A DNA stretch of 12,257 nt from positions 1 to 12,257 of the forward strand of contig JAENWC010000392.1 in NCBI GenBank assembly GCA_016650235.1, read 5' to 3'. How positions within the stretch are numbered: the first letter of the stretch is position 1; the number at the start of each line of letters is the position of its first letter. The notes below the pieces were generated by a model. That model ran no database searches. It saw nothing but the letters and a program-made list of their open reading frames with translations, and was not told where the DNA came from. This document shows positions 1,823 to 9,901 of this stretch, piece after piece. The stretch is from Terriglobia bacterium (GTDB lineage Bacteria > Acidobacteriota > Terriglobia > Bryobacterales > Bryobacteraceae). Made by a program: the position numbers and the translations under genes.

Positions 1823-2485
1823 ATGAAGTTTGCCGCAGTTTGCGCCCTATGCGCCTTCTGCATTATTCCGGCCCGCGCGCACGAGACCATCTCGACCAAA
1901 CTCACCTGGACCCGCGAAATCTCGCGCATCCTGTATAAGCATTGCGGATCATGCCACAAGGAAGGCGGGCCGTCCTTTTCGCTGATGAGTTATGAAGAGG
2001 CGCGCCCGTGGGCGAAGGCTATCAAGGAAGAGGTTCTCGAACGGCGCATGCCTCCCTGGAGCGCGGTGAAAGGATTCGGCGAGTTTGCCCATGATGAGGC
2101 GCTGTCGATGGAAGATCTCCATCTGATCTCCGATTGGGTGGAGGGCGGGGCTCCGCAAGGCGATCCGAAGTATCTGCCGGACGCGCCCCGATACAAGGAT
2201 GCGCCGAAGCCCCGGCTGATACAGGGGCGCGTGGTGAGTGGTGAATACAAGCTGCGATCCGCGATGAGGGTTCGCGCGGTGCGTCCCGAAGGGCTGGCCG
2301 AGGGCGGGTGGCTGAAGGCGATCGCGGTGCTGCCGGACGGCCGGGTGGAGCCGCTCCTTTGGATCTACAACTATCAGCAGAAGTGGCCACGGAACTACAC
2401 CTTTCAGGACGCGATCGCGCTTCCGGCGGGCGCGGCGGTGCAGGTGGCACCGGCGGGAGCCAAGCTGGTTTTGTCATCACGGTAG
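1823..2485 (+). CDS. Secreted c-type cytochrome domain (CGSCH) followed by a degenerate, 3'-truncated CuH-like segment lacking His ligands; paralog of ORF1
   Basis: AAGGG lies 8 nt upstream of ATG 1823; the in-frame ATG at 1817 is also possible. The signal peptide is MKFAAVCALCAFCIIPARA|HE. CGSCH and YEEARPWAKAIKEEVLERRMPPW, plus LISDWVEGGA, align with the ORF1 N-domain. The C-terminal part (VRPEGLAEGGWLKAIAVLPDGRVEPLLWIYNY) aligns with ORF1 [31 protein letters not shown], but HH is replaced by LW. The ORF stops at TAG 2483-2485, only 2 nt from the convergent gene. Confidence 0.6.
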   Translation: MKFAAVCALCAFCIIPARAHETISTKLTWTREISRILYKHCGSCHKEGGPSFSLMSYEEARPWAKAIKEEVLERRMPPWSAVKGFGEFAHDEALSMEDLHLISDWVEGGAPQGDPKYLPDAPRYKDAPKPRLIQGRVVSGEYKLRSAMRVRAVRPEGLAEGGWLKAIAVLPDGRVEPLLWIYNYQQKWPRNYTFQDAIALPAGAAVQVAPAGAKLVLSSR

Positions 2486-2487
2486 TC

Positions 2488-3111
2488 TCAATTGGCCGGA
2501 ACGGGCGGGTTGGCTTCGTTTTGACGGCGTTGTGAGGCGAGGCTGAATGCGGCCGCTTCGGCTTCAAATTGGGATACGGAGTAATCGATAGTTGCGTTTG
2601 TGGCGAATTGGCTTCGTTTCGCCATTTTGTCGATGGGGACCAGCGGGGATATGTTTTCCGCGTTGAGATGGTTCGCGTTTTCCAGGACATAGCGGTCGGA
2701 CTGAAGAACGCGGAGTTCGCGCAGGGCGCGATAGTAGGACTTCTCGGCGCGTGCGAAGTAGCGGGCGTAACGGTCGCATTGGGAGGCGAGGCCCGAGTCG
2801 GAGAGCGGGTCGATGCCGGATTCGGCGATCTGGGCTTCGAGGCGGCGTATGCGTCGCATGTTCCAGGCGGCGTGGAGCAGGTTGTCGAACGCGGTGAGTT
2901 CGAGCTGGCCATTGGGTTTGATTTGTCCGGTGAGTGAGATCTGGAAATCGAGGAAGTCGTCCTGTTCGTGGGGAAGGATGACGAGGTCCTTGGATGTGAG
3001 GCCGTGGGTGCGTGCGTTTTGCGCGGAAGCTGCTTTGCCTTCCTGGGTGCATGGGCCAGTGGAGAGTTGGGCGTTGGCGCGATTGGCTTCGATTTGCGGT
3101 AGTGAAGACAT
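2488..3111 (-). CDS. Hypothetical protein, 207 aa, no family recognised
   Basis: ATG is at 3111..3109, preceded by AAAAGGAG 7 nt upstream (plus strand ctcctttt at 3121-3128). The composition is normal with a central predicted helical region. The overlapping longer minus ORFs are Pro/Arg/Ser-rich low-complexity frames. Codon usage (CTC, CAA, AAA; C- and A-ending codons) differs from neighbouring genes. Confidence 0.6.
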   Translation of the reverse strand: MSSLPQIEANRANAQLSTGPCTQEGKAASAQNARTHGLTSKDLVILPHEQDDFLDFQISLTGQIKPNGQLELTAFDNLLHAAWNMRRIRRLEAQIAESGIDPLSDSGLASQCDRYARYFARAEKSYYRALRELRVLQSDRYVLENANHLNAENISPLVPIDKMAKRSQFATNATIDYSVSQFEAEAAAFSLASQRRQNEANPPVPAN

Positions 3112-3593
3112 GGGATGAGACTCCTTTTATGAGCGATACGGGCCAAGGCAGGCTGGTGGGAGGCGGGGCGCGCGACGGACCATGCCTCCTTACTTTCAGT
3201 TTAGCGCACGGGGCCAAAAGCGGCGGTTTGGAATTTGGCTGGATGTTTAGTGTTATGAGTTGTTTACAGGGATTTTTTATGGTTGTGATCGGCACCGGCC
3301 TATTTCTGCTTTTTGACTCAGAAAGGCCCCCAGCGCCGCGGCTTCAACATCACGCTTACTACAAATCCGACTAGGGATTCAAGATATCGTTGATGCGCTC
3401 CTCCGTTAGCCGCGTATGAGTGTTAGCCTCAGCTAATGGGATGATCCGCCCAAGAGTATTCCGGATGAACGACACTCGGGAGTTGACAACAGCAGATCGG
3501 TAAACCAAACGGCGTTACTCGGCCTAGTTTGACAGTAGCCAATAGTAATGCGCATGCCTTGCCAGCCGTTACTGGAAGTTCTCCGGCGACCAG

Positions 3594-5621
3594 TTACCGA
3601 TTCTCTGCGGCAGGGCCCGACGCCGCCAAGGGATGCCCAACGTCTTTCCCGGTGAGCAATTGAGCAAGGAACGCAGAAAAGATACCACTGCTGCCGTCGG
3701 CTGCACCCGCGCCGACCAGAATGTCCGGGGTAATCTTGAGTCCGGCTGCGGCAATGGATTTCGCGACTTCGATTGCAGTCAGGTTTAACTGTCCAACTGC
3801 GGCGACCTGTTTCTGGAAGGCTTCCGCGGTCGCGCTTCCCACAGCGAGAACCTTTTTCCCTGAGGCTTGTCCCAGCATCTCGATGGCGCGGGCTTCGCCC
3901 TCGGCCCGGATAATGGTCTGTTGCCGGGTCTGTTCAGCTATTTGGACGCCGACCTGAGCGGCAACCAGATCGGGCTGCTTGTCGGCTGTAGCTCGTGTAT
4001 TGTCGGTCGCAATCCTTTTCTCTTCCGCTCTCTGCTGCTCCACATACATCTCTTGCTGTTGCGTTGCAATGACCCGTTTCGTTTGGATCTCCATCAAATT
4101 TTGTGGAAGAACGATCTGGGAAATGAGTACCGAGACGATCTCGACATGGTACTTTTCGAGCTCGGTGCGAGCCTGCTTTTCTATCTTGTGCTGTTCCAGG
4201 GTGCGGTCTTGCATGAATCGCATCGCCTCGGTCGAGGAGGCCTGATTGCGGAAGCACGAGTCAATCATCGGGTGGACAACGTGCTCAACCAGATTATGGA
4301 GCGATCCGATTTTAGAGACCATCAAGGGAGCCTGGTCGGGCCGAATCCGAATGATGACTTTCACGCTCACCTGCATTTCAAAACCATCACGGCTGATCAC
4401 CGTAAGCTCGTCGAACACCTGGGGTAACGCGCTTAGTCCGCTCTTGCTTAGCGTGACACCAGCAACTTCTTCGCCTCCGCCTTGTTCCGCCCAATCGATC
4501 GTAATGTTGGTCGTCGGGATGATGTAGGGGATATAAGCCCAGCGGTTAAGATAATAGGCACCCGGTCCGGCCACCTCGACCTGGATACCCCGGCAACCGG
4601 CCGGAACCACGTACCGCTCCTGACCGGAGCGCAGTCTATCCTCCGTGGTGAGCCAGTCCGGTTCGCCGCCTACGTTTGACACGAGTACGGCGACCTCTCC
4701 TCGGTTGACAACCATCACCTCATCTAGCTTCACATTGAACATCAACGGGTTGACATAATAGGTTCCGGGCTTCAGTAGATCAAACTGAGGCCCGCGCAGC
4801 CCCCTGCTAGCCAGAAAGGCCGGGGCGTCCTGAAAATCATTGTGATGCTCCACATGTGGAGCCACCAAGTCACCCGATGGCAAAGGTTGGCCGTCATTCG
4901 CCGTCACCAGACCAACTTGATTCGCCTCAATGACGGTTGCTTCCTTTACCTCTATTTGGAACAGGTCGGTATTGATCCGATACCGCCCGGGAAGAATGAC
5001 CTCGATCTGCGGGCCACGCTGGCCGCCATTCTTGAGAAAAGTCTCTCCGTCCTGGAATGAATTATGTCCCTCCGCTTTCTGAGCGAGCAGGCGGCCGGCC
5101 TGTATCACACTTCCATCCCGAGCGCTCGCGACGCCGACATGGCCTGGAGGAATGGTTGTTACCGGCACCAGTCGCACGTGGAACAAGTATGAGTTAATCC
5201 GGTACTTGCCAGGTGGAAGAACATCTACCTGGGGTCCCTTTTGGCCTCCATTGTGAAGGAAGGCTTCGCCATCCTGGAAGTTGCCGTGGCTGGCGACGTG
5301 GCGTGCGAAGATCTGGCCCGGCTGGAGGGGCAGACCATCAATGGACTCGACGAGTCCAACTTGCTCGTCTTGTACGACAATCATCTCCTCTCGCGACACT
5401 TTGTAGAGGAAGGGAGGCAGTACGTAAAGCCCGGGTTTTAGTGATCTCGCTTGAAACCCAATCTCTCCCCGCATGGCGACAACTCGCGCTTCCGGTAGCG
5501 AACGGCCTAGGTAACGGCGTTCTCTGATCCCAACCTCCGACCCTCTGACGCTAACCAGCATCCTCCCGCCAAACACAAGCAGTACCACCACTACTGCCAG
5601 AACGATCAGTTCCACATTCAT
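3594..5621 (-). CDS. Flotillin-like SPFH/Band 7 family protein with an N-terminal TM anchor, 4-5 tandem ~75-85-aa repeats, an SPFH core and a flotillin C-terminal helical region
   Basis: The start was re-called at the internal ATG 5621..5619 (MNVELIVLAVVVVLLVFGG, a TM helix) because AAGGAG sits 8 nt upstream; the longest-ORF start at 5660 has no RBS. Repeats share ...QVGLV..DG.PL..G..VA.HV..H..FQDxxxFLxNGGQxGPQxxVLPPGxYRINxxLFxV. The SPFH core is VISRDGFEMQVSVKVIIRI...EQQRAEEKRIA...IRAEGEARAIEML. The C-terminal tail contains KITPDILVGAG. Confidence 0.85.
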   Translation of the reverse strand: MNVELIVLAVVVVLLVFGGRMLVSVRGSEVGIRERRYLGRSLPEARVVAMRGEIGFQARSLKPGLYVLPPFLYKVSREEMIVVQDEQVGLVESIDGLPLQPGQIFARHVASHGNFQDGEAFLHNGGQKGPQVDVLPPGKYRINSYLFHVRLVPVTTIPPGHVGVASARDGSVIQAGRLLAQKAEGHNSFQDGETFLKNGGQRGPQIEVILPGRYRINTDLFQIEVKEATVIEANQVGLVTANDGQPLPSGDLVAPHVEHHNDFQDAPAFLASRGLRGPQFDLLKPGTYYVNPLMFNVKLDEVMVVNRGEVAVLVSNVGGEPDWLTTEDRLRSGQERYVVPAGCRGIQVEVAGPGAYYLNRWAYIPYIIPTTNITIDWAEQGGGEEVAGVTLSKSGLSALPQVFDELTVISRDGFEMQVSVKVIIRIRPDQAPLMVSKIGSLHNLVEHVVHPMIDSCFRNQASSTEAMRFMQDRTLEQHKIEKQARTELEKYHVEIVSVLISQIVLPQNLMEIQTKRVIATQQQEMYVEQQRAEEKRIATDNTRATADKQPDLVAAQVGVQIAEQTRQQTIIRAEGEARAIEMLGQASGKKVLAVGSATAEAFQKQVAAVGQLNLTAIEVAKSIAAAGLKITPDILVGAGAADGSSGIFSAFLAQLLTGKDVGHPLAASGPAAENR

Positions 5622-5629
5622 TGTGATTT

Positions 5630-5635
5630 CTCCTT
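5630..5635 (-). promoter_or_regulatory. Shine-Dalgarno AAGGAG for the flotillin gene (8-nt spacer to ATG 5621)
   Basis: The plus strand reads ctcctt at 5630-5635, which is AAGGAG on the minus strand. The context is GCAAAGGAGAAATCACAATG. Confidence 0.6.
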
Positions 5636-5676
5636 TGCTCGCCGATGATAGGCGCGCCATACTACGATTTCCGGTT

Positions 5677-6297
5677 TCATGCCTTCTTCGCGAACTCGCT
5701 GCGGTGGCGGCTGTAAAACAGGTAGATCAACAGTCCGAGCACCAACCAGACGACGAAACGCACCCAGGTGATGACCGCAAGTCCCATCATCAGACCGCCG
5801 CAGAGTGCGGTGGAGATCAGAGGGAACCACGGCACCAGAGGCACTTCAAACAAGCGCGGACGGTCGGGCTGGGTGCGGCGCAGGACGATCACGCCGAGCG
5901 AGACGAGCACGAATGCGAAGAGCGTGCCGATGTTGGAAAGGTCGCCGGCGTCGCTGATGGCAAATATTCCTCCGGGAATGCCAACAGCAAAGCCGGCGAT
6001 CCAGGTGGACAAATGTGGCGTCCTGAACTTGGGATGAATGGCGGAAAAGAACTTGGGGAAGAGATCATCGCGCGACATGGCGTGCCAGATGAGAGCCTGG
6101 CCGTATTGGAAGACCAGCAGTGAGGAGATCATTCCCGTGAGGGCGCCGATCCCCAGCGCGGCCAGCGACCATGGGTCGAGTGTCTTTTGCAGCCTGTGTC
6201 CCGGGGCCTCGGACCCGGAGATCAGCTTGTCGATGGATTTGCGGGAGAAAAGCTGATTCCAGAAGCTATGATTCTCCGATGTGTGGATCACTTTCAT
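5677..6297 (-). pseudogene. APC-superfamily (cationic amino-acid transporter-like) permease remnant: N-terminal ~55 aa fused in frame to C-terminal ~150 aa, central core missing
   Basis: The N-terminus FSRKSIDKL...LQKTLDPWSLAALGIGALTG matches the cytoplasmic N-tail and TM1 GxG motif of APC/CAT permeases. It continues directly into ISSLLVFQYGQALIWHAMSRDDLFPKFFSAIHPKFRTP...FEVPLVPWFPLIS...TWVRFVVWLVLGLLIYLFY, the characteristic last 3-4 TMs. Overall length is 206 aa, where an intact permease would have about 450. The RBS is intact (AAAGAGGAA 6 nt upstream of ATG 6297). Confidence 0.5.
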
Positions 6298-6458: not shown

Positions 6459-7031
6459 ATGGCCCAGCCCGGAGACGTTACGAGCCTGTTGGCTGAAATT
6501 CATCGCGGAAACCGCCGCGCTGAGTCGGAGCTGATCCCATTGATTTACGACGAGTTGCACCGCCTTGCCGCATACTACATGCGGCGCGAGAGATCCGACC
6601 ATACGTTGCAGGCAACCGCCCTAGTGCATGAGGTTTACCTGCGGCTTTCGAAGCAGCGCGAAGTGACCTGGCAGAACAAGGCCCACTTCTTTGCGATTGC
6701 CGGAAGCTTGATGCGCCGCATTCTCGTGGATCATGCTCGTGCGCATAGCCGAAGCAAGCGCGGAGGCTTACAGCAGAAGATCTCCCTAGAGGAAGCGCTG
6801 CTCTTCTCAGAAGAGCAATCCGAAGAGCTAATGCTATTGGACACGGCACTGGCTCAACTCACTGAAGAGCACCCCCGGCAGAGTCAGATCGTGGAACTGC
6901 GGTTTTTCGGAGGGCTCACCGTGGAGGAAATCGCGGAGGTTTTGAAGGTTTCGCCCAAAACGGTAAAGCGCGACTGGAGCGTAGCTCGTGCTTGGCTTTA
7001 TCGCGAAATCCACAAACAGGAAGCTGGATGA
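6459..7031 (+). CDS. ECF-subfamily RNA polymerase sigma factor (sigma-70 regions 2 and 4)
   Basis: MAQPGDVTSLLAEI...LIPLIYDELHRLAAYYMRRERSDHTLQATALVHEVYLRL is region 2. ELRFFGGLTVEEIAEVLKVSPKTVKRDWSVARAWL is the region 4 HTH. The 190-aa length is typical. The track ORF beginning at 6171 overlaps the divergent gene and is not used. An alternative in-frame start exists at 6408. Confidence 0.9.
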   Translation: MAQPGDVTSLLAEIHRGNRRAESELIPLIYDELHRLAAYYMRRERSDHTLQATALVHEVYLRLSKQREVTWQNKAHFFAIAGSLMRRILVDHARAHSRSKRGGLQQKISLEEALLFSEEQSEELMLLDTALAQLTEEHPRQSQIVELRFFGGLTVEEIAEVLKVSPKTVKRDWSVARAWLYREIHKQEAG

Positions 7032-9901
7032 CGCCGGAAGGGCGAGAGAGGATCTCCGAACTATTCGAGGCGGCGCTCGAGCGAGAACCGAACGAGCGAG
7101 ACGAGTTCCTCGAGGAAAGTTGCAGCGATGAGGAGATTCGGACTGAAGTCAAGTCATTACTCGCCGAACACGAGAAGGCGGGAAATTTCATGAAAGAACC
7201 GGTGCTCGCATCGGAGCGTGCACTGTTTGCATCGGCCCAGTCCTTGGCACATCCCGCAATTGGCGAGGTTGCTTACCGCCAGCTCAGCGAGCGATACGAG
7301 ATCCTGGCTGAGGTTGGCCGCGGCGGAATGGCTATCGTCTATAAAGCCCGCGACCGCATCACTGGCGAAATTGTGGCCCTTAAGATTTTGAAACCGGAGG
7401 TGGCCTCCGACCAGGTCGCCATGGAGCGGTTTAAGAACGAACTACGTCTAGCCCGCAAGATAACGCACAAGAACGTGTGCCGCATCCACGAATTCAGTCT
7501 GATTGACGGTACGGCATACATTTCGATGGAGTTTGTCGAAGGGGAAAGCTTGCGCGAGATCTTGAGGCGTTTTGGCGGGCTGTCTCTTCGCAAGGGAATC
7601 GAAGTTGCTCTCCAGATTTGCGACGGACTTCAGGAAGCCCATAGCCAGAAAGTAGTCCACCGCGACCTCAAGCCGGGAAATATCATGATCGATCGATCGG
7701 GACACGCTAAAGTCATGGATTTTGGCATCGCTCGCTCCGTGGAGACAGGCGTTAACACTGGAACCGCAGTCATCGGGACACCAGCCTATATGGCTCCGGA
7801 ACAAGCACAGGGTAAGAACATCGATGATCGAACCGACATTTATTCCCTGGGACTAATTCTTTACGAAATCTTTACCGGGAAACCGGCTTTCACCGGTGAC
7901 ACCCCAGTTTCAGTTGCCCTCAAGCAAATCAACGAAATACCGCGCTGTCCTCGTGAGCTCGAACCCACGATTCCTCTCCAGATCGAGAAGGTAATTCTCC
8001 GATGCGTGGAGAAGGACCCAGCCAACCGCTATCAAACCTTGAGCGAATGGAAATCGTCATGGACCAAAGAATCTGCTGTAATCTCACCCGTCCTCCCCAG
8101 CCTTGTTCTGCATAAGAGGTGGCTGATTTACCTGGTCCTGGCCTCGTTGGCCCTGGTCGCCGCCATCACTGGCATTGTCGTCTGGAACCTGAAGCCCTCC
8201 GTAGCAGGCCAGCCGTCTGTGGCGCGCATTACGGTGGATCTTCCGCCGGGTGAACGGCTGGCCGGGTTGGGGCTGTCCGCTCTCACCGTTTCTCCGAAAG
8301 GCAGCGAACTCGCATATGTCGCTAAACGAAACGGTATCCAGCAACTCTTCCGTCGGGCACTCGATAGTCAAGAAAGTAAACCCGTCTCTGGCACGGAAGG
8401 TGCACTCAGCCCCTTCTACTCACCAGACGGTCAATCATTGGGTTTTTGTGCAGATGGAAAGCTGAAAACAGTCGCAGTTAACGGGGGTGCCCCAGTGGTA
8501 TTGGCGCCTGTGTTCTCTGGTTGTGGGGGAAGTTGGGGGAATGCCGGCCAAATCATTTTTTCTCCGAGTTGGACAGCCGGACTTATGCAAGTTTCGGCTC
8601 TGGGTGGCATGCCGAAAGCCCTCACAGCGCTTGATCGAGAACGGGGTGAAGGAGGCCACCGCTTTCCTCACCATTTGCCGGGTGGCAGGGCATTGCTTTT
8701 CACCGTCGGGACGGGTGGCAGTTGGGATGACGCGCGGATTGAAGTGCTACGGCCCGATACCGGCCAGAGAAAACTCCTGATTAATGGGGGTAGTGATGCC
8801 CGTTACGTCCACACAGGTCACATCGTTTTTGTGCGAGGGGCGACTCTTTTGGCGGTGCCGTTTGATCTGGCGCGGTTGGAGGTTACGGGTCCCCCAATGC
8901 AAATCCTCGAGGGGGTTATGCCCTCAGTTGATAAAACGGGAGCGGCACAGTTTGGTTTTTCCAATGCTGGTTGGTTGGTGTACGCACCAGGGAATTTACA
9001 CGCAGAGGAACGGCAACTCGTTTGGGTGGATCGTTCAGGCGCGGAACAAGCATTCCCGCTGCCGCCCCGTCCTTACACTGATATTAAACTCTCTCCGGAC
9101 GGCCACCGTCTGGCTCTAAGTATTGATGAAGGAAACAAGGCGGATATTTGGCTATACGAGGTTTCTCGCGCCGTACTCACGAGGCAATCATTTGCCGCCA
9201 CTAATAGTGCTTCTACTTGGACTCCAGACGGGAAGAAGATAGCGTATTATTCCGACAGAGACGGGCAATGGAATCTCTATTGGAGTGCAGCCGATGGGAG
9301 CGGGGTTGAAGAGCGGCTCACGTCAAGCGAATCCCCCCAAATTCCCTGGTCGTGGTCCCCGGATGGTCAGCTCCTGGCCTATTCAGAAAGTCACCCAACC
9401 ACAGGGATCGATATTTCGGTGCTATCTCTCAGAGATGGCCGGAAGGCACAACCTTTCCTTCGGACTCCGTTCAACGAAGATGCACCCGTGTTTTCGCCCG
9501 ATGGTCGCTGGCTTGCCTATCAATCCAATGAGTCCGGCCGCAATGAAGTTTACGTGCAGCCCTATCCCGGCCCCGGCGGGAAGTGGATGATTTCATCAGA
9601 AGGGGGAGTGAAGCCGCTGTGGGCATCGGATGGGCGGGAGCTGTTTTACCGTAATGGCGACAAGATGATGGTGGTTAAAGTGGCGACTCGGCCTGAATTT
9701 CGTGCTGCGAAACCGGAGATGCTTTTTGAGGGAGACTATAAGGATGATCCAACAGGCCCGCAGTACGACGTGACGCCCACTGGAAGGCGGTTCGTAATGA
9801 TGAAAGAAAGTGACCTCGTAGCCGCCGCTACAAAACTCAACGTCGTCCTGAACTGGTTCGAAGAGGTGAAACGGAAAGTGCCGGCGAAATATCCGAGATG
9901 A
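7028..9901 (+). CDS. Hanks-type Ser/Thr protein kinase with an ECF-associated N-terminal motif, one TM helix and a C-terminal TolB-like (PD40/WD40-like) beta-propeller
   Basis: ATG 7028 overlaps the sigma stop (ATGA) and AGGAAG lies 4 nt upstream. The N-terminus is RISELFEAALEREPNERDEFLEESCSDEEIRTEVKSLLAEHE. Kinase motifs are GRGGMAIVYKA, VALKIL, HRDLKPGNIM, DFGIAR and GTPAYMAPE. The TM helix is WLIYLVLASLALVAAITGIVVW. The periplasmic region has repeated SPDG/TPDG motifs (YSPDGQSL, LSPDGHRLA, WTPDGKKIAY, WSPDGQLLAY, FSPDGRWLAY). Confidence 0.9.
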   Translation: MTPEGRERISELFEAALEREPNERDEFLEESCSDEEIRTEVKSLLAEHEKAGNFMKEPVLASERALFASAQSLAHPAIGEVAYRQLSERYEILAEVGRGGMAIVYKARDRITGEIVALKILKPEVASDQVAMERFKNELRLARKITHKNVCRIHEFSLIDGTAYISMEFVEGESLREILRRFGGLSLRKGIEVALQICDGLQEAHSQKVVHRDLKPGNIMIDRSGHAKVMDFGIARSVETGVNTGTAVIGTPAYMAPEQAQGKNIDDRTDIYSLGLILYEIFTGKPAFTGDTPVSVALKQINEIPRCPRELEPTIPLQIEKVILRCVEKDPANRYQTLSEWKSSWTKESAVISPVLPSLVLHKRWLIYLVLASLALVAAITGIVVWNLKPSVAGQPSVARITVDLPPGERLAGLGLSALTVSPKGSELAYVAKRNGIQQLFRRALDSQESKPVSGTEGALSPFYSPDGQSLGFCADGKLKTVAVNGGAPVVLAPVFSGCGGSWGNAGQIIFSPSWTAGLMQVSALGGMPKALTALDRERGEGGHRFPHHLPGGRALLFTVGTGGSWDDARIEVLRPDTGQRKLLINGGSDARYVHTGHIVFVRGATLLAVPFDLARLEVTGPPMQILEGVMPSVDKTGAAQFGFSNAGWLVYAPGNLHAEERQLVWVDRSGAEQAFPLPPRPYTDIKLSPDGHRLALSIDEGNKADIWLYEVSRAVLTRQSFAATNSASTWTPDGKKIAYYSDRDGQWNLYWSAADGSGVEERLTSSESPQIPWSWSPDGQLLAYSESHPTTGIDISVLSLRDGRKAQPFLRTPFNEDAPVFSPDGRWLAYQSNESGRNEVYVQPYPGPGGKWMISSEGGVKPLWASDGRELFYRNGDKMMVVKVATRPEFRAAKPEMLFEGDYKDDPTGPQYDVTPTGRRFVMMKESDLVAAATKLNVVLNWFEEVKRKVPAKYPR

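Follow-up and report, generated by a model that had tools for sequence, protein, structure and literature searches.

A membrane-anchored bacterial SPFH protein with five beta modules in series and a domain order like that of the major vault protein

Results

In the window, i.e., the whole 12,257-nt stretch of DNA analyzed, positions 3594 to 5621 correspond exactly to one coding sequence, which is read on the minus strand, like all features described below. According to the list of open reading frames and the translation, it encodes an SPFH-domain protein of 675 aa in which an N-terminal beta module is amplified. An earlier note on this DNA had delimited the same interval without giving the strand. 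The gene starts with the ATG at 5621-5619 and ends with the stop codon at 3594-3596, and a Shine-Dalgarno-like AAAGGAG can be read at 5630-5636, 8 nt upstream of the ATG. A longer open reading frame starting at 5660 is unlikely to be used, because the N termini of homologues agree with the ATG at 5621, which is also favored by the position of the Shine-Dalgarno-like sequence. An NCBI entry identical to the product is listed as hypothetical protein (P0001, locus tag JJE04_20805). No promoter or terminator signal near the gene exceeded shuffle expectation, and searches of the window for Rfam families and tRNAs were negative.

We show that the gene product spans the membrane once and belongs to the SPFH (Band 7) superfamily. 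It follows the layout common to this superfamily, in which the anchor precedes the SPFH domain and a long helix comes after it. The N-terminal transmembrane (TM) helix (5559-5618, aa 2 to 21), proposed earlier as the anchor, was borne out by a mean Kyte-Doolittle hydropathy of 2.9 across aa 3 to 19 and by a model helix at aa 2 to 21 with pLDDT above 80. Band_7 (PF01145) matched aa 344 to 533 with 73.3 bits against a cutoff of 23.6 (E = 3e-20), and the alpha/beta SPFH fold is present, with its SPFH2-type core at 4104-4415 (aa 403 to 506). This core is preceded by a Gly/Glu-rich insertion loop within the SPFH domain (4416-4487, aa 379 to 402; pLDDT about 30), which varies among homologues and where the consensus is undefined. 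It is followed by a single model helix of 70 residues (3894-4103, aa 507 to 576), in agreement with the long helical region noted before; weak HflC and prohibitin profile matches are located in this helix, which is the equivalent of CC1 or of the cap-helix wall in SPFH cages. The Ala/Gly-rich C-terminal region (3597-3893, aa 577 to 675), modeled in the monomer with low confidence (pLDDT below 50), is conserved among homologues to about aa 656 and presumably represents a roof or cap segment.

Downstream of the TM helix, we show five beta modules in series: one minimal, three of 74 aa with a short helix insertion, and one integral to the SPFH domain. A PGxY motif is found five times, at residues 63, 137, 211, 285, and 353, with a spacing of 74 aa three times and then 68 aa. 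The strong copies are unit 2 (5148-5369, aa 85 to 158), unit 3 (4926-5147, aa 159 to 232), and unit 4 (4704-4925, aa 233 to 306). Their pairwise Smith-Waterman scores were 154 to 187, compared to 22 to 25 +/- 4 to 5 for shuffled sequences (z = 29 to 34, and 30 to 34 for unit 2 against units 3 and 4), and none of 300 shuffles reached an observed score, so the internal periodicity asked for in the earlier note is significant. That note had estimated a unit length of 75 to 85 aa and about half identity among copies 2 to 4; the repetition and the similarity stood, while the strong units measure 74 aa and their global protein identity is slightly lower, at 38 to 46%. F37, G42, G45, Q47, G54, and N59 are invariant within the units.

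The flanking copies are indeed degenerate, as previously supposed. Unit 1 (5370-5558, aa 22 to 84), a minimal copy of 57 to 63 aa depending on the choice of boundaries, lacks the 17-aa FQD/helix insertion found in the 74-aa copies and was aligned to the repeat profile by hhalign with a probability of 96.5% (aa 20 to 84; E = 8e-10). Unit 5 (4488-4703, aa 307 to 378) aligned to repeat columns 34 to 68 with a probability of 65% (E = 6e-5) and to units 2 to 4 with Smith-Waterman z values of 6 to 10. This last copy is itself the N-terminal, SPFH1-type beta part of the SPFH domain and begins the Band_7 domain, which supports the view that the repeated unit is a copy of the first SPFH beta module. 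In relatives, position 2 to 3 of the Band_7 profile likewise starts directly after the last strong unit. Cryo-EM groups refer to the module opening SPFH domains as SPFH1, and ECOD assigns it to an "MVP repeat" class.

At the DNA level the units share only about 50% identity and the gene contains no long repeats; therefore, the duplications must be old. The scarcity of DNA-level repeats, limited to two short chance-like pairs, rules out a recent duplication or an assembly artifact. Relatives kept out of profile building carry the same units (E = 1e-29). No Pfam or NCBIfam model currently exists for the repeat module. When the 74-aa repeat profile was used in a word-indexed search for homologues, it retrieved no more than eight short fragments and was uninformative; in PDB sequences, its only match was a chance match to PsaE (E = 0.4).

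The designation "flotillin homolog" used in the earlier note holds at the superfamily level only, because profiles specific for flotillin and HflC were not matched. The 675-aa protein gave no match to the flotillin profiles (NCBIfam FloT NF058507 and the Pfam flotillin C-terminal model) and scored 25.3 bits against a cutoff of 134.4 with the HflC equivalog profile; a Rhizobium relative named "flotillin family protein" by NCBI reached 21 bits with FloT against a cutoff of 700. No profile-level link to the major vault protein (MVP) was detected either. Pfam Vault and MVP_shoulder were absent from the protein at E <= 1, from isolated units at E <= 10, and from giant relatives at E <= 0.05, and profiles of the full-length alignment and of the repeat unit retrieved no MVP chain from PDB sequences at E <= 10.

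The AlphaFold2 model of the full-length monomer reproduced the proposed order of TM helix, beta-repeat stack, SPFH domain, and long helix, with pLDDT values of 75 to 90 over the repeats and the SPFH core and of 81 to 88 for the beta strands of unit 1. The repeats appear in it as separate modules of an extended rod, not as parts of a single SPFH domain. It has the MVP-type fold and order of tandem five-stranded beta modules, SPFH-like shoulder, and cap helix. Full-length MVP provided the best Foldseek matches of the full-length model (E = 1e-12 to 1e-9), in line with the suggested parallel in domain order; MVP R1-R7 alone gave E = 5e-6 and a TM score of 0.46, and the inter-module geometry superposed on R1-R7 at 3.9 A. 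Identity in structural alignments with MVP was 9 to 12%. A model of the repeats only (aa 85 to 306) was of low confidence (pLDDT 61), and Foldseek with this model against the PDB returned nothing below E = 2.9, with MVP at E = 3.8; we do not take this as speaking against the fold. In the full-length model, the predicted fold of the module stack matches that of the MVP repeat barrel.

The protein belongs to a large, uncharacterized bacterial family, comprising 2041 cluster representatives at 50% identity. Members were found in 345 species genomes of many phyla, including Chloroflexota, Acidobacteriota, Bacillota, Desulfobacterota, Bacteroidota, Pseudomonadota, and Cyanobacteriota, and also on plasmids and in phages. 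Homologues of variable repeat number, for which the earlier note had proposed a search, do exist: copy number ranges from about 1 to about 13 at a constant period of 73 to 74 aa, with 3 strong units in proteins of about 675 aa, 5 in those of about 840 aa, and 7 to 13 in those of 1200 to 1800 aa. Among the relatives in cultured hosts, Ralstonia pickettii WP_012435685.1 has three strong units and Rhizobium phaseoli WP_064830263.1 has two, the Sporomusa silvacetica DSM 10669 homologue falls into the length class of the 675-aa protein, and GMSM_41710 of Geomonas sp. Red276 has five units. Units at equivalent positions in different proteins are orthologous (e.g., unit 2 with unit 2 of relatives), and this, together with the constant period and the varying copy number, fits a modular, stackable wall element. 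One TM-less relative, P0124, has 12 to 13 units and is encoded 95 nt from the upstream gene. The TM-less relatives with 12 to 13 units are cyanobacterial. Genes next to the cyanobacterial giants include GUN4, caspase, and VWA genes.

The gene neighborhood is not conserved and hints at neither a client nor a function. Clustering by blastp of 80 loci and the window revealed no neighbor family in more than 8 loci, and recurrent neighbors, inspected by eye, were of mixed kinds (one protein with an HD-type domain at its C terminus, a Ser/Thr kinase, an MBL-fold protein, a TetR-like regulator, and a GNAT-like protein). The arrangement of two adjacent paralogous genes characteristic of HflK/HflC was not seen: of the 80 loci, 74 have a single family gene per locus (with 75 family members among them). 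An adjacent NfeD-type partner gene (YqiJ/YuaF) has been described for the flotillin subfamily (FloT, YqiK, and flotillin-1 and -2; PMC2636767). The window contains no such gene, and among the 80 loci no neighbor family was common to more than 8. PADLOC defense models gave no match.

Judged by the positive-inside rule and the architectures of relatives, the repeats and the SPFH domain are probably cytoplasmic (N-out/C-in). The 675-aa protein lacks K/R ahead of the TM helix but has three such residues within the 15 that follow it, and among 120 homologues, K/R residues were more numerous on the C-terminal side of the TM helix in 42, equal in 66, and fewer in 4, with an N-terminal tail devoid of K/R in almost all. 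Some relatives have a cleavable-looking signal peptide followed by about 60 to 180 aa and then the TM helix, and one carries a PG_binding_1 domain between two TM helices. We infer cytoplasmic repeats because these signal peptides or the peptidoglycan-binding domain lie upstream of the TM helix. E. coli QmcA is said to be a precedent for N-out/C-in SPFH proteins, from work that Chiba and colleagues reportedly presented in 2006.

Discussion

Vault half shells are 39-fold and enclose vault RNA, TEP1, and PARP4; a context of this RNA or of these two proteins is absent here, in a bacterial host. MVP repeats comprise about 55 aa, whereas the strong units of the present protein comprise 74 aa with a helix insertion; it has five modules compared to nine in MVP, and its 70-residue helix is shorter than the MVP cap helix of about 150 residues. 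The likeness to MVP (PDB 4V60, 9Z4W, and 3GF5 for R1-R7) lies in domain order and predicted fold. MVP protomers are soluble, and the two half vaults are joined through their free N-terminal repeats, whereas the 675-aa protein has a TM anchor at this place. In the SPFH cages HflK/C (7VHP, 7WI3), QmcA-YbbJ (8Z5G), prohibitin, stomatin, erlin, and flotillin there is one SPFH1 module, as opposed to five in series here. HflK/C, PHB1/2, and Flot1/2 are moreover paired paralogues, whereas neither a paralogue pair nor an NfeD partner gene is present at this locus. According to the literature, every SPFH protein of solved structure assembles into a ring cage and has its anchor ahead of the SPFH domain (PMC13100048, PMC12624060), and MVP modules form a closed barrel by lateral packing (PDB 4V60; PMC13100048, PMC11348225).

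While the architecture is shown by the data presented above, assembly and function can be approached by inference. With moderate confidence, we propose as the best explanation a membrane-capped "half vault" cage, the wall of which would be lengthened by the extra beta modules, along the lines of the taller barrel envisaged in the earlier note. The protomer would insert N-out/C-in, with everything after the TM helix in the cytoplasm, and protomers would join side by side into a ring, as other SPFH proteins do; ring formation, subunit number, and lateral repeat contacts are assumed here by analogy. The helices might converge into a roof and the TM helices might fence a membrane patch, while four extra beta-module rings would lengthen the wall by about 2 to 3 nm per module, going by the vault analogy, such that lumen height would be set by repeat number, which differs between family members (1 to about 13). 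A likely role, as for other SPFH cages, would be to enclose or scaffold a microdomain of the membrane together with the cytoplasmic portions of putative clients.

The repeats might instead serve as a rigid stalk, spacer, or binding platform without lateral contacts, holding an ordinary-sized SPFH ring off the membrane. Oligomerization would then still proceed via the SPFH and helical parts, and repeat number would set a distance instead of lumen height. The extended rod of the monomer model would suit such an arrangement, as would the instability of the repeats when modeled alone and the nature of the invariant unit residues, which resemble fold-determining turns and form no obvious interface. 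However, MVP, the one solved case with the same module order, packs its modules laterally (PDB 4V60; PMC13100048, PMC11348225), every SPFH cage of solved structure has its SPFH1 modules joined in an unbroken ring, and 24 to 44 unconnected rods on TM helices would be unusual. We therefore consider a stalk rather unlikely.

Prokaryotic "MVP homologues" were reported earlier from Myxococcales, Cytophagales, and Oscillatoriales (Daly 2013, PMC3762200; Sokolskyi 2019, bioRxiv 10.1101/872010), and an MVP with five repeats from Asgard archaea (PMC12962969). Like the present protein, they combine several MVP-type repeats with a Band-7-like shoulder and a coiled coil. They have been described as few and were recognized by BLAST/Pfam similarity to MVP (25 to 50% identity), whereas the present family is without such similarity, TM-anchored, and very widespread. 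Herpetosiphon A9AUD4, annotated as "band 7 protein" and threaded as MVP (Daly et al. 2013, PMC3762200), could be a member of the present family. It is tempting to speculate that the family is a bacterial membrane-anchored counterpart of vaults, forming half-vault cages on the cytoplasmic face, and that eukaryotic and Asgard MVP descended from it or share its amplified ancestor, via loss of the TM helix and N-to-N dimerization of the halves; the TM-less cyanobacterial relatives with 12 to 13 units might then assemble into free vault-like particles. We regard this scenario as a whole as unlikely.

A related view, which we deem quite unlikely, takes the protein for a very divergent true member of the MVP lineage, with one ancestral amplification shared with the eukaryotic, Asgard, and "bacterial MVP" proteins. 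Vault-like particles might then form, e.g., from two membrane-free halves in TM-less relatives such as P0124. Agreeing with this view are the rank of MVP as best full-length structural match, the superposition of module geometry on R1-R7, and the length of unit 1, which is near that of an MVP repeat; the existence of the TM-less P0124 and the threading of the Herpetosiphon protein as MVP also fit. Against it, sequence profiles provide no link to MVP, the TM anchor sits where MVP dimerizes half vaults, and the 70-residue helix is like that of HflK/C or prohibitin. Furthermore, the repeats resemble the protein's own SPFH N-terminal module and further copies were gained in the course of the family's own history (3 to 5 to 13); therefore, independent amplification is at least as likely.

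The same architecture might also be oriented oppositely, with the cage on the outer (periplasmic or extracellular) face, as in HflK/C, which likewise has one N-terminal TM helix. Consistent with this, more than half of the 120 homologues show no charge bias within 15 residues of the TM helix. However, the N-terminal tail devoid of K/R and the QmcA precedent point the other way, and relatives that have a signal peptide and a second TM helix, or in which a peptidoglycan-binding domain precedes the last TM helix, require the C-terminal part to be cytoplasmic. This orientation thus appears very unlikely.

Although relatives bear database names such as "flotillin family protein," "YqiK," and "HflC," there is practically no chance that the protein is an ordinary single-SPFH flotillin or YqiK whose "repeats" reflect chance resemblance or belong to a single domain, a reading refuted by the repeat statistics (z about 30), the fixed period with varying copy number, the separate modules in the model, and the units of independent relatives (E = 1e-29). 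The unmatched FloT, HflC, and Pfam Flot profiles also speak against it.

The prokaryotic roots of vaults have been traced in the literature to "only a few Bacteria" and to a small number of Asgard archaea (PMC12962969). With its canonical SPFH anchor and variable stack of MVP-like modules, the family offers a concrete intermediate architecture between a membrane-bound SPFH cage and a free vault. It is thereby relevant to vault and SPFH evolution and bears on the question whether vault architecture was invented in Asgard archaea or eukaryotes at all. The natural series from 1 to about 13 modules of 73 to 74 aa should be useful for testing the control of SPFH cage height. Cultivable hosts with family members include Ralstonia pickettii (on a plasmid), Rhizobium, and Sporomusa silvacetica.

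Repeated beta modules in the SPFH protein

A single open reading frame fills positions 3594-5621 on the minus strand, and its translation yields 675 amino acids, the product length given in the earlier note. The start codon (ATG at 5621) is preceded by AAAGGAG at 5636-5630; an alternative in-frame ATG at 5660, which would add 13 residues, was ruled out because homologs start at the equivalent of 5621. NCBI holds the identical product as a hypothetical protein of an Acidobacteriia MAG (locus tag JJE04_20805). Band_7/SPFH is its sole Pfam match (aa 344-533, E = 3e-20, 73 bits), NCBIfam returned just sub-threshold HflC matches in the helical part, and by its sequence we classify the protein as a member of the SPFH superfamily.

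The motif PGxY recurs at residues 63, 137, 211, 285, and 353, spaced by 74, 74, 74, and then 68 residues. The strong copies, units 2 (aa 85-158), 3 (aa 159-232), and 4 (aa 233-306), share 38-46% identity and reach pairwise Smith-Waterman scores of 154-187, compared to 22-25 +/- 4-5 for shuffled sequences (z = 29-34; 0 of 300 shuffles as high). Unit 1 (aa 20-84) lacks the 17-residue HNxFQDGExFL segment, making it a minimal copy of about 57-63 aa, according to the choice of boundaries; it matched a repeat profile of 422 units taken from homologs with an hhalign probability of 96.5% (E = 8e-10). Unit 5 (aa 307-378), aligning to columns 34-68 of this profile (hhalign probability 65%, E = 6e-5) and to units 2-4 at z = 6-10, forms the beta portion at the N terminus of the protein's own Band_7 domain, and in long relatives the Band_7 alignment opens at profile position 2-3, straight after the last strong unit. 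Thus, the repeated element is a copy of the first SPFH beta module, which bears out the origin proposed in the earlier note. DNA identity between units is only about 50%, and a search for a long direct DNA repeat within the gene found none, indicating that the duplications are old and not an assembly artifact. The repeat is real, and no Pfam or NCBIfam model covers the module.

Homologs and copy number variation

A word-indexed search retrieved 2607 homologous proteins at E <= 1e-5, and exhaustive scanning of 50%-identity cluster representatives with HMMER retrieved 2041 (E <= 1e-3), 341 of them reaching E <= 1e-30. Protein lengths fall in clusters, and a repeat HMM detected three strong units in the class of about 675 aa, five in that of about 840 aa, and 7-13 in proteins of 1200-1800 aa, with a period constant at 73-74 aa across the family. 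Units at equal positions in different proteins correspond as orthologs (0.68-0.74 on the diagonal vs about 0.4 off it), and the two additional units of the 840-aa class resemble the first strong unit. Entries of about 590 aa, devoid of the TM helix and first unit, look like truncated gene calls.

Scanning one genome per species for the pattern identified 345 genomes with a member. The best 80 of these 345 are mostly Chloroflexota, at 64-70% identity, and also include, at 53-56%, Acidobacteriota, Bacillota (Sporomusa silvacetica DSM 10669, Pelosinus), Syntrophales/Desulfobacterota, Bacteroidota/Ignavibacteria, Elusimicrobia, and Spirochaetes. The contig is labeled Acidobacteriia, yet the closest named homologs are those of Chloroflexota, and Acidobacteriota copies reach only about 55-56%; this suggests either horizontal gene transfer or contig mis-binning.

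Predicted structure and possible assembly

The full-length AlphaFold2 model, based on 78 aligned sequences, has a mean pLDDT of 70, with 75-90 over aa 1-310 and the SPFH core. It places a TM helix (aa 2-21) ahead of five small beta modules in succession, the three long ones each containing a short helix, followed by the alpha/beta SPFH core, a single 70-residue helix (aa 507-576), and an Ala/Gly-rich C-terminal tail of low confidence. Foldseek against the PDB ranked full-length MVP chains first (9Z4W, 9R86, 9MXV, 6BP7, and 4V60; E = 1e-12 to 1e-9; alignments of about 650 columns), followed by prohibitin, HflK/C, stomatin, erlin, and flotillin on the C-terminal half of the model. The MVP R1-R7 fragment, which lacks the shoulder domain, matched by itself (3GF5_B, E = 5e-6, TM 0.46). 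Units 2-4 modeled alone gave a poor model (pLDDT 61) for which Foldseek found nothing significant (MVP at E = 3.8). The analysis demonstrates the domain architecture, its fold-level match to MVP, and modular copy number variation. The earlier note had read the order as beta-repeat stack, SPFH domain, and long helix and had called for homologs with variable repeat number; both were recovered. Its observation is confirmed, and its interpretation is supported wherever it could be tested.

Solved SPFH complexes all have their anchor upstream of the SPFH domain and a roof made by the helices (PMC13100048, PMC12624060). From established knowledge of such complexes, protomers would be expected to pack laterally into a ring, with their TM helices fencing a patch of membrane and the extra beta-module rings lengthening the wall by roughly 2-3 nm per module, as estimated by analogy with the vault barrel. 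The result would be a "half vault" that sits on the cytoplasmic face and is closed by the membrane. Its lumen height would be set by repeat number, and its presumed function is microdomain or client sequestration, as in other SPFH cages. We hold the architecture to be highly probable, and the full proposal, which joins to it the ring cage, membrane closure, cytoplasmic location, and sequestration, to be moderately so. That the repeats form a stalk without mutual contacts is unlikely.

A true but highly diverged MVP lineage is likewise unlikely; the Foldseek ranking would speak for it. The Pfam Vault, MVP_shoulder, and flotillin models did not match the full protein at E <= 1, its isolated units at E <= 10, or the giant relatives at E <= 0.05, and neither the whole-family profile nor the repeat profile found an MVP chain among PDB sequences. 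Published work already interprets the vault as an SPFH protein whose SPFH1 modules have been multiplied (PMC11348225), and ECOD counts the module at the N terminus of ordinary archaeal SPFH proteins as one MVP repeat (PMC13607799). Prokaryotic homologs of MVP have been reported from a small number of gliding bacteria and cyanobacteria (PMC3762200; bioRxiv 10.1101/872010), and a five-repeat MVP has been described from Asgard archaea (PMC12962969). A Herpetosiphon (Chloroflexota) "band 7 protein" among the candidates of Daly (2013, PMC3762200) may already be a member of the present family. We therefore regard our finding as a variation on a known theme and not as categorically new. The principle behind it, MVP as amplified SPFH1, is already recognized; SPFH and vault specialists would be surprised by a membrane-anchored bacterial protein that is widespread and bears a vault-like stack of repeats, which is directly testable. 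In the searchable literature, we found no description of a TM-anchored multi-repeat bacterial SPFH family.

An orientation opposite to the proposed one is also unlikely. Lys and Arg are missing from the N-terminal tail in nearly all homologs, and the protein carries three within 15 residues after the TM helix; among 120 homologs, 42 have more of them in the C-terminal flank, 66 have the same number on both sides, and 4 have fewer. Several distant relatives begin with a signal-peptide-like start followed by 60-180 residues and a TM helix, and one has a PG_binding_1 domain between two TM helices. From these arrangements, we infer that repeats, SPFH domain, and helix lie in the cytoplasm. E. coli QmcA, reportedly an N-out/C-in SPFH protein according to Chiba et al. 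in 2006, offers a precedent.

An ordinary single-domain flotillin is refuted. The earlier designation as a flotillin homolog holds at the level of the SPFH superfamily and fails specifically, given the missing Pfam flotillin match and a FloT score far below cut-off (21 bits vs 700) in a Rhizobium relative named as a flotillin family protein. The HflC equivalog model gave 25 bits vs a cut-off of 134.

Genomic context

When all open reading frames of 80 related loci were clustered, no neighbor family exceeded 8 loci and tandem paralogs were absent; PADLOC gave no match. The short-class gene thus appears to stand alone, and its product is probably homo-oligomeric. Directly upstream, a 206-aa open reading frame (5677-6297, minus strand) matches just the C-terminal third of an amino acid permease (AA_permease_2 profile positions 264-399 and AA_permease_C); the frames upstream of it had no Pfam match and overlap a sigma factor gene, and it is apparently what remains of a truncated gene. 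This ECF sigma factor gene (PF07638; 6171-7031, plus strand; domain at residues 101-280) shares 40 nt with the beginning of the next gene (6992-9901, plus strand), which encodes a 969-aa Ser/Thr protein kinase bearing PD40 beta-propeller repeats at its C terminus; the two are likely co-transcribed. Downstream, the unannotated 300-nt spacer at 3296-3593 had no Rfam match, and the overlapping minus-strand frames 2022-3146, 2488-3111, and 2564-3295 had no Pfam or PADLOC match; plus-strand GC skew is +0.24 to +0.26 at 2000-3500. Sulfatase and cytochrome-c-like proteins are encoded farther out.

The giant relatives come from filamentous cyanobacteria (Symploca, Iningainema, and Okeania) and combine 7-13 units with a C-terminal VWA domain. 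At the loci of P0124, P0137, and P0122 (L083, 3190-13382; L084, 4148-8996; L085, 1854-10075, respectively), a GUN4-domain protein gene lies directly upstream, in one case fused to a Peptidase_C14 caspase. Two of the three have a separate VWA protein downstream, then a PP2C phosphatase or another caspase; L084 has the upstream GUN4 gene only. A further relative, P0230, carries a CHAT protease domain at its C terminus. The giant loci resemble systems of the conflict or programmed-cell-death type, and this GUN4/VWA/caspase gene order is absent around the gene studied here. P0124 (1793 aa; L083, 4001-9382; 12-13 units), 95 nt from its upstream gene, has no TM helix and could be a soluble form that is free of the membrane.

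Plasmid-borne members include WP_012435685.1 (691 aa) of Ralstonia pickettii and R. insidiosa, with three strong units at E = 1e-29 by a profile built without it, and a Rhizobium "flotillin family protein" with two; copies also occur in Streptomyces and Clostridium. Plasmid contexts differ: on R. pickettii pRp12D0 the gene adjoins a PRTRC (ParB/ThiF) cluster, and on Rhizobium phaseoli pRphaR650d it precedes an SbcCD-like pair made up of a DNA-repair exonuclease and a 1157-aa AAA ATPase. A 642-kb uncultured phage (LR756502.1, 343979-345571) encodes a relative with 34% identity over aa 118-642, and Vibrio phages MW824375.1, MG592609.1, and NC_048827.1 encode shorter SPFH relatives.
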